Part shown: piece after piece, positions 15,109 through 19,333 of the stretch
How positions within the stretch are numbered: the first letter of the stretch is position 1
How the letters are laid out: the number at the start of each line of letters is the position of its first letter
Source: Eledone cirrhosa
Taxonomy: Eukaryota
Assembly (NCBI GenBank): GCA_964016885.1
Contig: CAXHJY010001007.1
Coordinates: forward strand, 1 to 19,333
Direction of reading: 5' to 3'
Length of the DNA: 19,333 nucleotides
Position numbers and translations under genes: made by a program
Notes under the pieces: model-generated
Databases searched by the model: none
What the model was told of the DNA's origin: nothing
What the model saw: the letters and a program-made list of their open reading frames with translations, nothing else

Positions 15109-15195
15109 TAACTTTGAATAACTTTGAAATGTTTTGGCCAGTATTGGCCCAGGCCATGTCTAACTTAATAGCACCACCTGGCGAAGTCTTTCAAT

Positions 15196-18100
15196 TCAGG
15201 ATTTGGGCACCATGGCCCATTCGAGAAGAGAATTACTGTTTGCGGAGACATATCCGGGTGTGGGTGGTTTGTCCGGGATTACTTGGAGGAATTTGTCCAA
15301 AGACTTCTTGAATTTTGTGTGGTCAGTTTCTGTTTTGACGTGTCCTGGTGTGATGTTGAAGAGAGCAGGGCCGATTGAGGTGAAATAATTGTGCCGTATT
15401 GTTGTTATGAGTTGCGATTTAGATTTTTGAATGGGACGGATAGCACGGGGCCCAAGCCTTGGGTGTATCTTGAAGGCGATGCCAACATCATTTGGGCAGT
15501 GATGATGGAACATTTTCCACATCATGCAGATAATATAACGCTCACGGCGACGTTGGAGTGAGTAAAGTTTCAGGTTTTCCAATCGACCCCAGTAGTCAAG
15601 GTCTGACATGCCATCTATCTTTTTCGTGATTGCCCTTTGAGGAGCTTCAAGTTTCATGATACTTTGTTTCGTGTGGGGAGACCACAGTGGACAACAGTAT
15701 TCAAGGTGTGGTCGGGCGAAAGTAGAGAAGAGAAGGATAATGGTGCGGGAATCTCTCGACTGGAAGGTTCTGAGGATCCAGGAACACATTCTGCGGGCCA
15801 TGTCAACTTTGCTGCTTATATGCGTGGTCCAGCTTATGTTGCTGTCCACGGTTACTCCCAAGTCTCTGATGTTGTTAGATGCCACGAGAGTTTCCCCGGA
15901 GGGAAGGGAGTACGGGAGTTTCAGAGCATCCTCTTTTCCAAAGTGGATCAGTTCGAATTTGTCTTCGTTCAGTAACATGTTGTTCTTTTCTGCCCATTGG
16001 GTAACAGCCAGTAGGTCTGACTGAAGGCTTATCCGGTCATCCACGCCATTGATGACCTTTTGGAGCTTGGAATCATCAGCGAAAATTTTAATGTTGCTGT
16101 GTTTGATGATGTCAGTGATGTCATTAATATAGATGATGAAGAGAAGTGGGCCCAACACAGTGCCTTGTGGGACTCCACTACTGACTTTGGCTGGGCTTGA
16201 TTTGACTCCCTCAACTACAACATGTTGGGTTCTGTTTGACAGGAAGCTGTTGATCCACTGCAGCAGCTTTCCAGTGACACCAATATTGGACAGCTTTCTC
16301 AGTAGAATGTTATGATCAACCCTGTCAAAGGCCTTGCTGAAATCAAGGTAGATAACATCAGTGTTGGAACCCTCTCCCAAGGCTCTCAAAATGTCATCAA
16401 AGTGATGCAGTAGTTGCGTCAGGCAATCCCTTCCATTACGGAATCCATGCTGGTTGGAGTTCAGCATATTGTTACTCTCAAGGAAGTGGGTCATTCGCGA
16501 TCTCACCACTCGCTCAAATACCTTAATGATATGAGAGGTGAGTGAGATTGGACGGTAATTCACGGCAAGGGATTTGTTTCCCTTTTTGAAAACTGGGACA
16601 ACAGACTGGGATAGAAGGTTTTCTGGCACATATCCAGCATCCAGTGAGTTCCGCCACAGATTGGCAAGAGGAGAAGCAAGTTGGTGTTGACACGCCTTCA
16701 AGACACAAGCAGGGAACCTATCGGGACCTACTGCTGAATTATGCTTGATTTCCTTTATTGCCGCCAAGACATCAGGGGCGCCAAACGTTATGTCCGATAA
16801 GGTGTAATGGGGAGTAACATCGCCGATACAGCCCAGATCGGCCATATCAGGATTGCTGAAAACAGAGCAGTATTGTTTCTGCAGTATCTCACCCATGGTT
16901 TTAGCATTGTCTTGAAGAGTGCCATTTTCATCAATTAGAGGGCCAACAGTAGAGCCAGTGATTTTGTGTTTTTTTGCAAATGAAAAGAACACTTTGGGAT
17001 TGAGTTTGATCTTCTCAATGGCCCAGGCCTCTTCAGCTCTTCTCTGATTGTTGATGAGGGACATTATGTTGTTTTGGAGGTTATGTTTTTTAATCTCTAG
17101 TGATGAAATGGCAGTCAAGTTGATGTGTTGCTGCTGACAGTATTTCAGCTTGTTGATTTTTTTGTTCGTTCTCTTAATTTTTCTGATGAGCGTTTTTCTA
17201 TTTCTAGGGATTCTGCTCTTAGATTTGTTTATAGTTCTTAATGGGGTGTGTTTAGCACATATGTTTGTAACAGTGTCCACAAATGTCTGCCAGGACTTTT
17301 TGATGTTAGTGGGTGTATGAGTGTGCGTGAAGGACCAGTCGACATGTGCAAGATCATGACTGATCGCTTCCCAGTTTGCATTGTGGAAATCCATAGCGTC
17401 AAACGGATGGACAGGAGAGATGACATTGGGTTTGTATATTGGACGGTGGAATCTCAGATCACAGAGAACCATGTCATGATCAGAGAGTAGAGTTTTCTCC
17501 ACTGCAATATTGTGGATATTGTCAGTGTGATTGCTGAAAATTAAGTCTAGGACGTTTTTGTGGCACCTCGTTGGTTCGAGCACTAGTTGGGATAGGAAGA
17601 AATCATCCATGAAGTCAAGAAGCGATTCCACAGCTTCCCTGTCAGAGGTTGAGGCAGAAGAACCTGGTGGCAGGGTGTTTGTGGACCAGTCAACTCCGGG
17701 GAGGTTGAAGTCCCCCATCATTAAGATGTTGTCAGGGTGACACTCTTGGATGAAACACTTTATGCTGTTGAGGCATTCCTTGAAGCATGGTACAGGCGTT
17801 TGGGGTGGCCTATAGAGCCCAACTACTAATAGGTTGTTGGTTTGACTGAATACAGTGACTGCCTCACAGTATCCATTAGTGAATATGTTCATAGCCTCTG
17901 TTGAGAAAGAATTATGGACATAAATGGCAGTTCCGCCCTTTCTTCTGCCAGCGCGATCAGCACGGATGGCTTTGAAATTTTTCACTTTCACCTCGGCTTC
18001 CAAGTGGAGGTTACTGAGATGGGTTTCAGTGAGGACGAAGAAAGGGATGTGGTTTGGATGGACATCAATCCAGTCCTCCAGGAATTTGATCTTCCATTTT

Positions 18101-18216
18101 TGAGTATTGGTGGAAGGGCTGATGCCTTGGGCGTTAAGCAAAAATGTAGAGGCGAGAGTGGATGGTTTTAATTGTTTTGGTGTGTTGTTAATTTGTTTGT
18201 TTGTTAATGGCAGCAA
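15196..18216 (-). CDS. LINE ORF2: apurinic-like endonuclease plus reverse transcriptase (CR1 group)
   Basis: APE motifs NAQG, LTETHL, YRPP, GDFNLP, LDLIFSN, SDHD. RT motifs YRPISLTS, QHGFR, YLDFSKAFD, SGVPQGTVLGPLLF, FADD. C-terminal SLQRRRERY. The frame is open upstream to 18333, with no ATG before the endonuclease domain. Confidence 0.95.
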   Translation of the reverse strand: MLPLTNKQINNTPKQLKPSTLASTFLLNAQGISPSTNTQKWKIKFLEDWIDVHPNHIPFFVLTETHLSNLHLEAEVKVKNFKAIRADRAGRRKGGTAIYVHNSFSTEAMNIFTNGYCEAVTVFSQTNNLLVVGLYRPPQTPVPCFKECLNSIKCFIQECHPDNILMMGDFNLPGVDWSTNTLPPGSSASTSDREAVESLLDFMDDFFLSQLVLEPTRCHKNVLDLIFSNHTDNIHNIAVEKTLLSDHDMVLCDLRFHRPIYKPNVISPVHPFDAMDFHNANWEAISHDLAHVDWSFTHTHTPTNIKKSWQTFVDTVTNICAKHTPLRTINKSKSRIPRNRKTLIRKIKRTNKKINKLKYCQQQHINLTAISSLEIKKHNLQNNIMSLINNQRRAEEAWAIEKIKLNPKVFFSFAKKHKITGSTVGPLIDENGTLQDNAKTMGEILQKQYCSVFSNPDMADLGCIGDVTPHYTLSDITFGAPDVLAAIKEIKHNSAVGPDRFPACVLKACQHQLASPLANLWRNSLDAGYVPENLLSQSVVPVFKKGNKSLAVNYRPISLTSHIIKVFERVVRSRMTHFLESNNMLNSNQHGFRNGRDCLTQLLHHFDDILRALGEGSNTDVIYLDFSKAFDRVDHNILLRKLSNIGVTGKLLQWINSFLSNRTQHVVVEGVKSSPAKVSSGVPQGTVLGPLLFIIYINDITDIIKHSNIKIFADDSKLQKVINGVDDRISLQSDLLAVTQWAEKNNMLLNEDKFELIHFGKEDALKLPYSLPSGETLVASNNIRDLGVTVDSNISWTTHISSKVDMARRMCSWILRTFQSRDSRTIILLFSTFARPHLEYCCPLWSPHTKQSIMKLEAPQRAITKKIDGMSDLDYWGRLENLKLYSLQRRRERYIICMMWKMFHHHCPNDVGIAFKIHPRLGPRAIRPIQKSKSQLITTIRHNYFTSIGPALFNITPGHVKTETDHTKFKKSLDKFLQVIPDKPPTPGYVSANSNSLLEWAMVPKS

Positions 18217-18371
18217 TGGGAGTTTGTGCAGTGGGGTGATAGTGGAGGGTGGTGCTGGGTGATAGCTCGAATGTTTTTTTCCAGTTCTTTTGCCAGATTC
18301 ATTATGGCTAAAAAAGAGGAAGAAGTTTCCTGTTTAGAAGACTGTTGGTGACTGTGGTAGTGGTTATTTTT
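18204..18371 (-). pseudogene. C-terminal remnant of LINE ORF1 overlapping ORF2
   Basis: Open frame [42 protein letters not shown]...CCH* overlaps ORF2 (which is in the -1 frame) and is truncated by the TA tract. No domain is recognisable. Confidence 0.5.
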
Positions 18372-18873
18372 ATATATATATATTCATATATATATATATA
18401 CATATATATATATATGTATATATATATATATATATACATATATATATATATATATATATATATATACATATATATATATATATATATATATATACATATA
18501 TATATATATATATATATATATATACATATATATATATATATATATATATATACATATATATATATATATATATATACATATATATATATATATATATATA
18601 CATATATATATATATATATATATATATATATACATATATGTATATATATATATATATATATATATATATATATATATATATATATATACATATATGTATA
18701 TATATATATATATATATATATACATATATGTATATATATATATATATATATATATATATATATATATATATATATATATACATATATGTATATATATATA
18801 TATATATATATATATATATATATATATATATATGTATATATATATATATATATATATATATATATGTATATAT
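18372..18873. repeat. (TA)n tract with CA/TG interruptions between the two LINE 5' ends
   Basis: Direct inspection. Confidence 0.95.
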
Positions 18874-19333
18874 AGTAACCGTGGACAGCAACATAAGCTG
18901 GACCACGCATATAAGCAGCAAAGTTGACATGGCCCGCAGAATGTGTTCCTGGATCCTCAGAACCTTCCAGTCGAGAGATTCCCGCACCATTATCCTTCTC
19001 TTCTCTACTTTCGCCCGACCACACCTTGAATACTGTTGTCCACTGTGGTCTCCCCACACGAAACAAAGTATCATGAAACTTGAAGCTCCTCAAAGGGCAA
19101 TCACGAAAAAGATAGATGGCATGTCAGACCTTGACTACTGGGGTCGATTGGAAAACCTGAAACTTTACTCACTCCAACGTCGCCGTGAGCGTTATATTAT
19201 CTGCATGATGTGGAAAATGTTCCATCATCACTGCCCAAATGATGTTGGCATCGCCTTCAAGATACACCCAAGGCTTGGGCCCCGTGCTATCCGTCCCATT
19301 CAAAAATCTAAATCGCAACTCATAACAACAATA
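18874..19333 (+). mobile_element. Second, heavily 5'-truncated copy of the same CR1-group LINE (runs off window)
   Basis: Reverse complement of 15397-15856, with no differences seen by eye over 460 nt. Confidence 0.95.

Follow-up and report, generated by a model that had tools for sequence, protein, structure and literature searches.

Head-to-head CR1-like LINE copies at a TA microsatellite in Eledone cirrhosa

The window analyzed in this study is the whole of a 19,333-nucleotide (nt) stretch of DNA from Eledone cirrhosa (GenBank assembly GCA_964016885.1, contig CAXHJY010001007.1, positions 1 to 19,333, forward strand). Its right-hand end carries two copies of a CR1-like long interspersed nuclear element (LINE), both with their 5′ ends toward a common TA tract. 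A preliminary description made from the sequence alone had proposed two head-to-head copies fused by their 5′ ends to one tract, and this arrangement is borne out, with a spacer of 504 nt. The features of the locus are listed here by window position.

14882–15104, no strand assigned: element B (second copy), with an arm of about 55 nt, a TA spacer of about 35 nt, the same arm inverted, and 80 nt of extension on one side; it serves as host site for copy 1 (layout compared with PMC8557442).
15105–15108, no strand assigned: TATA between the copy 1 tail and element B; together with the TATA at the 5′ junction, a candidate target duplication of 4 base pairs (bp), from our reading of the junctions.
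15109–15195, minus strand: 3′ untranslated region (UTR) with predicted hairpins at 15150–15180 and 15136–15149 and a tail of two 10-nt units (folding).
15109–18370, minus strand: copy 1, a 5′-truncated CR1-like LINE of about 3.26 kb, whose 5′ boundary lies within 18366–18372.
15196–18333, minus strand: open reading frame 2 (ORF2), an unbroken frame of 1,045 codons from stop to stop, carrying Pfam domains for an endonuclease and for reverse transcriptase (RT).
18204–18383, minus strand: a short frame overlapping the 5′ end of ORF2, the candidate end of ORF1 (frame scan).
18371–18874, no strand assigned: the (TA)n spacer, 504 nt, with 20 C or G interruptions, not mirror-symmetric (period 2, 91% matches).
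18874–19333, plus strand: copy 2, which begins at ORF2 codon 826, shares 1 nt of microhomology with the tract and ends at the window edge; identical to copy 1 over 460 nt.

A BLAST search within the window aligned positions 18874–19333 with the reverse complement of 15397–15856 at 460 of 460 positions and without gaps, so that the nucleotides available for comparison are identical, as they had been described. An exact match of this length is far beyond chance. Other dispersed or inverted pairs in the same BLAST list range from 70 to 99% identity, and two other arms that we measured directly are identical at 55 of 55 and 13 of 13 positions. The two copies differ greatly in size. Copy 1 spans about 3.26 kb, and copy 2 would measure 748 nt if it reaches the same tail; its final 288 nt, if colinear with copy 1, fall past the end of the window. 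Both 3′ ends had been said to point outward. This is observed for copy 1, whose tail ends at 15109, and for copy 2 an outward 3′ end with a tail of its own is inferred from colinearity with copy 1. The 5′ ends of the two copies lie 2.5 kb apart in element coordinates. Starting at codon 826, copy 2 is without the endonuclease and almost the entire RT core. The unique gap between the identical arms is 3,017 nt (15857–18873). In the sequence as it stands the arrangement is genuine, and one locus without its deciding flank does not establish a new mechanism.

Copy 1 has the features of a nearly complete LINE. ORF2 matches three Pfam families: the APE-type endonuclease families PF03372 and PF14529, and the reverse transcriptase family PF00078 at amino acids 585–828. 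The RT catalytic motif is FADD at amino acid 751, and in its endonuclease motifs the frame can be aligned with human L1 ORF2p. RNase H is absent among the three families matched, and the two CCHC patterns scanned gave no match in ORF2. CR1-clade LINEs are not known to carry either an RNase H domain or a C-terminal CCHC knuckle, and the C-terminal motifs of ORF2 look CR1-like. The first methionine of ORF2 occurs only at amino acid 148, with none ahead of the endonuclease domain. The start region of ORF2 (18204–18333, minus strand) overlaps the short upstream frame, and a frameshift or a non-AUG start would be needed. A Pfam scan of the putative ORF1 end (54 codons) gave no match up to an E value of 1.

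The 87-nt 3′ UTR is predicted to fold more stably than expected (z −2.85), with 1 of 200 shuffled sequences folding as well. The tail, a twice-repeated 10-nt unit, lies directly past the hairpins, and poly(A) is absent. Known CR1-clade LINEs likewise combine endonuclease and RT in one frame, end in a 3′ hairpin followed by a short tandem tail, and are frequently truncated at the 5′ end (PMC4316615, PMC8665684). According to the same papers, the tail unit measures 8 nt in most amniote CR1 elements and 10 nt in avian CR1-W, the length found here. Unlike those elements, copy 1 has a tail sequence of its own, and its best full-length protein relative is distant. With the 8,000 best database candidates scored, this relative (P0001) is colinear with ORF2 at 481 of 986 identical positions (49%) and 2% gaps. 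Relatives of the RT half, again from the 8,000 best candidates scored, reach 44–59% identity and those matching short stretches 72–78%, in both cases among the 120 best matches listed, and no near-identical relative is among the matches listed in three protein searches. Among solved structures, the RTs are those of L1, R2 and group II introns only. From its domain layout and 3′ end, rather than from a clade-labelled tree, we classify copy 1 as CR1-like. Judged from protein searches alone, the element appears to be undescribed, and the repeat library of PMC13282606, which reports 787 recently active CR1 insertions in 13 families of Octopus vulgaris, could hold the family.

The junctions of copy 1 were also examined. 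Its 5′ end meets the TA tract within 18366–18372, where a run of five T nucleotides blurs the exact base. Read on the sense strand, the order is TA tract, LINE, tail, TATA and element B. The preliminary description had placed the visible 3′ end on TATA beside element B, and this is what we find: the tail ends at 15109, TATA occupies 15105–15108, and element B follows. Taken by itself, copy 1 looks like a canonical and complete insertion adjoining element B, with TATA on each side. The flanking TATA, which chance could equally supply in a TA context, is in line with the target duplications of CR1 and L2, which peak at 3–5 bp (PMC4245944). In the other copy of element B, the corresponding end likewise adjoins a TA tract, and therefore a tract probably predated the LINE here. 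Perfect runs of (TA)5 or longer make up 41% of window bases outside the LINEs.

Copy 2 meets the tract with 1 nt of microhomology. Among the 3,258 positions of copy 1, 55% match a TA end by at least 1 nt, 11% by at least 2 nt, and 2.5% (81) by at least 3 nt. The observed overlap is thus at chance level, and the copy 2 junction carries no sign of homology-guided annealing.

The spacer itself is interrupted in a semi-regular manner, every 24–32 nt at the left and by CATATATG units at the right. Compared with its own reverse complement it shows 42 mismatches, with C interruptions prevailing at the left and G at the far right. The density of C or G interruptions is 4.0 per 100 nt. Three short TA tracts elsewhere in the window have 2.3, 2.7 and 6.0 per 100 nt, and two stretches of the long arrays have 0.6 and 1.7. 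The spacer therefore looks like the other TA tracts of the window rather than like short filler; the 5′ filler of L2-clade inserts has been described as ‘several extra nucleotides’ (PMC4245944).

Inverted structures are found elsewhere in the window. Short palindromes are centered near 5647, 9320, 13030, 13380 and 14955, and four of the five pair an arm with its inverted counterpart and carry an extension on one side, all within TA. The four are the following.

5510–5859: arm, inverted arm and one-sided extension in a TA tract (layout).
12891–13215: the same layout in a TA tract.
13244–13435: the same layout in a TA tract.
14882–15108: the same layout in a TA tract, at element B.

Within each copy of element B, copy-specific variants are common to both arms, so each palindrome formed or was homogenized locally. 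Penelope-like elements are described as carrying an inverted 5′-truncated copy at the 5′ end and a tail of 30–40 bp on one end, and those of the Naiad type prefer (TA)n (PMC8557442). A Penelope-like protein cleaves and extends both strands, and the two sites on the RNA from which it starts define the tail (PMC11167929). The one-sided extensions in the window measure about 45–80 nt, versus the 30–40 bp of the Penelope-like tail. On the basis of this layout, the short palindromes and element B are likely to be Penelope-like remnants.

Some motifs in the window resemble hammerhead ribozymes, of which minimal forms have been described (PMC4209133). An Rfam scan of the window returned 117 matches, all under the gathering score and nearly all look-alikes of microRNA hairpins, with no hammerhead among them. 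Of four short stretches folded, one (5676–5730) has the two stems expected of a hammerhead, and none folds better than shuffled sequences (z from −1.2 to +0.4); the Penelope-like reading of the short palindromes is therefore drawn from their layout. This stretch, on the plus strand and in its mirror, has a minimal hammerhead-like fold with a variant core, no Rfam match and a z of −1.2. At 12535–12590, CTGATGA followed by CGAAA resembles a hammerhead core, and the predicted fold is unsupportive.

The palindrome at 8938–9727 is of another kind. Its arms of 370 nt are identical at 360 of 370 positions around a 3-nt center, and their likeness persists over more than 100 nt beyond the end of the element, into a low-complexity flank. 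This suggests an inverted duplication at the DNA level. The window thus probably holds two known routes to inverted pairs, neither of which requires a LINE that primes twice. The preliminary description had seen in the LINE pair the same architecture as in the short palindromes at kilobase scale. This stands as a description, and a common cause is improbable, since the short palindromes have a Penelope-like layout that implies a different class of enzyme.

We favor a model, to which we give about an even chance, in which the pair arose by two separate and recent target-primed insertions from one active CR1-like source into a single pre-existing, strand-symmetric TA microsatellite. The element’s endonuclease would have nicked the TA tract beside element B, where the terminal TA of the tail could pair with the target, and reverse transcription halting after about 3.26 kb would have left copy 1. 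A further nick about 500 nt away would have primed a copy of about 750 nt, yielding copy 2. As (TA)n reads alike on either strand, an insertion could take either orientation, and 1 in 4 pairs within the same tract would be head-to-head. Identity would come from the young common source, possibly aided by conversion between inverted neighbors. The choice of TA tracts by the family might reflect either a preference or mere frequent encounter.

Several observations fit this model. CR1 copies are as a rule heavily and variably truncated at the 5′ end (PMC4316615), and an unbroken ORF2 that is colinear with a full-length relative is expected of a young family. Between the two origins first proposed, a double-primed event with TA filler or two recent insertions, the latter fits best; TA filler is the weaker option, given 504 nt versus ‘several’ nucleotides and an interruption density within the 2.3–6.0 range of three short tracts elsewhere in the window. 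Two insertions would account for the finished junctions of copy 1, for a long spacer of ordinary appearance, for truncation to unequal lengths and for microhomology at chance level.

The absence of differences over 460 nt places pairwise divergence at no more than 0.65% (95%), or under about 0.9 million years at a rate assumed from octopus (PMC13282606). At 0.2% divergence, the probability of finding no difference over this length is 0.40; it falls to 0.10 at 0.5% and to 0.01 at 1%. Exact identity is expected from a single event or a duplication, and likewise from two insertions of a young source, and gene conversion between inverted neighbors or polishing could have removed differences. We also made a toy count of head-to-head pairs, in which the genome size (2.8 Gb) was assumed from octopus (PMC13282606) and the copy numbers and TA targeting were likewise assumed. 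With 1,000 young copies it gives 0.09–1.2 pairs per genome, and with 5,000 it gives 2–31. Two independent hits are thus plausible only for a large or TA-biased family.

A number of points weigh against two insertions. For 200 young copies, the same count yields only 0.004–0.05 pairs per genome, and the 460 of 460 identity means that both insertions must be very recent and from a single subfamily. The family is known here from this locus alone, with protein relatives no closer than those given above (49%, 44–59% and, over short stretches, 72–78%, among the matches listed). The candidate TATA duplication, directly outside both ends of copy 1, is indistinguishable from chance within TA. DNA-level fold-back seems to occur in the window, as at least one inverted duplication (8938–9727) outruns its element, and the LINE arms lie 3,017 nt apart, near the median of 3,428 bp for the spacers of fold-back duplications in humans (PMC3907307).

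One alternative, which we consider unlikely, is a single concerted event. Both strands of the TA tract would be nicked, each 3′ end would prime at the 3′ tail of the RNA, and the unequal complementary DNAs would be joined via TA, either copied from the target or arising by later expansion. Such an event would explain the 460 of 460 identity without calling for two hits, and the arms of element B are in fact joined by short TA. In vitro, cleavage and extension of both strands have been shown for a Penelope-like protein (PMC11167929), although the endonuclease of copy 1 is APE-type, not GIY-YIG. A loose precedent comes from tumors, where bridges of two inverted, 5′-truncated L1 copies have their 5′ breakpoints joined and their tails outward (10.1101/2024.08.27.596794), and related L1-induced inversions and fold-backs have been reported (10.1101/2024.12.14.628481). 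However, in the tumor bridges the 5′ breakpoints are joined directly, at translocations or inversions of megabase scale between two distant sites, whereas no rearrangement is visible here. Furthermore, 504 nt of interrupted TA far exceeds the ‘several’ nucleotides at L2-clade 5′ junctions, and the two junctions of copy 1 are already those of a completed insertion. In the experiments of the same L2-clade study (PMC4245944), products of second-strand priming, in the form of 5′ inversions, are nearly confined to L1 in human cells, with none from the L2-clade element ZfL2-1.

A more far-reaching proposal builds on such an event. An APE-type, CR1-like LINE might home to self-complementary (TA)n and prime both strands at once, leaving two-tailed inverted pairs in the germ line. 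It would thereby converge on the Penelope pattern, either via the symmetry of the target or via a borrowed Penelope enzyme. We regard this proposal as doubtful. No description of head-to-head CR1 pairs in TA tracts was found at the level of titles and abstracts, which is a weak negative given partial coverage of the literature.

Another mechanism that we hold to be improbable is DNA fold-back after insertion. A 3′ end from a break in the TA tract would fold about 3 kb back, prime within copy 1 and copy outward, so that copy 2 would be no insertion at all. Identity of the arms is expected from such a process, and the arrangement shares with fold-back inverted duplications both its identical inverted arms and a single-copy spacer of about 3 kb (known range about 0.8–70 kb). 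The 3,017-nt gap falls within the 766–70,466 bp reported for human inverted duplications and near their median (PMC3907307). Cruciforms formed by long interrupted TA repeats undergo cutting in human cells that lack two remodelers (PMC12018271), and the palindrome at 8938–9727, which reaches into the flank of its element, is consistent with fold-back nearby. The microhomology argues otherwise. Of 21 sequenced human junctions, 13 have 2–8 bp, three have long repeat homology and five have insertions (PMC3907307), versus 1 nt here, and all 81 of the copy 1 positions offering at least 3 nt of homology went unused. A plain fold-back about the TA tract was rejected, since its mirror should begin at the 5′ end of copy 1 and it begins 2.5 kb inside.

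It is quite unlikely that the pair is an artifact of assembly or of a read, in which a mis-join through self-complementary TA led to another copy of the family, or a chimeric read formed the contig tip, with polishing then inflating identity. The window does stop inside the repeat, and TA arrays take up about 8 kb of the window. Complex inverted insertions trouble assemblies (PMC8557442), and about 0.55–0.6% of Nanopore genomic reads contain fold-backs (PMC12870357). However, read fold-backs return within 200 bp (PMC12870357), and 3,017 nt are skipped here; a mis-join via TA would still fit. Several other palindromes of the window have diverged arms with real-looking indels, indicating that inverted structures are native to the region.

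Insertion of the LINE RNA in trans by (TA)n-targeting Penelope-like machinery, leaving an inverted 5′-truncated partner, is highly improbable: Naiad elements favor (TA)n, span several invertebrate phyla and often have such a copy at the 5′ end (PMC8557442), a likeness of layout only, and likely Penelope-like remnants surround the site, but copy 1, which ends precisely with its own hairpin-and-repeat tail, codes for a predicted intact enzyme of its own (Exo_endo_phos, APE-type, with a LINE RT) rather than a GIY-YIG endonuclease with a telomerase-related RT, Penelope reverse transcription begins at internal sites of its own RNA (PMC11167929), and the arms of the short palindromes lie 1–71 nt apart versus about 3 kb here. 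Classic twin priming was rejected outright, as the preliminary description had already argued on the grounds that the 3′ region is duplicated, not split. The pair shares with L1 twin priming two opposed element segments with facing 5′-side breakpoints, but in twin priming a single RNA is divided between an inverted and a forward part, with one tail. Here copy 2 repeats 460 nt of copy 1, and the two parts are separated by 504 nt of TA instead of being joined directly.

The remainder of the window is rich in simple repeats. Positions 671–8850 form a TA/TAAA array of about 8 kb, either real or inflated by assembly, with two short unique islands (about 2530–2790 and about 5510–5860), and a perfect 26-nt palindrome (8848–8873) closes it. 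A lone copy of the 12891–13166 element, 85–87% identical, lies at 522–670 and ends on the long TA array without an extension. A compound ATAC/ATCC minisatellite with periods of about 26 and 52–56 occupies 11627–12235. Two short stretches (10020–10120 and 13725–13775) resemble an abundant octopus short interspersed nuclear element, and the AT-rich, TA-laden character of the window would likewise be in keeping with an octopus.

If the two-insertion model is correct, the locus would point to a young, probably still active CR1-like family that uses TA microsatellites, as far as can be judged from its sequence, and would have little further import. Copy 1 is a nearly complete coding copy without a close relative in the protein sets searched. 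Whether the copies arose separately or together, two identical inverted copies flanking a tract prone to cruciforms make the locus a candidate fragile site as well as a trap for assembly. If head-to-head pairs were to prove overrepresented across the genome, the pair would be an example, in the germ line, of two-strand priming by a LINE other than L1. How the second target strand is cut and used is still called unclear in reviews (PMC2881922), and if two-strand priming does occur, (TA)n would offer a simple substrate on which to study this step.

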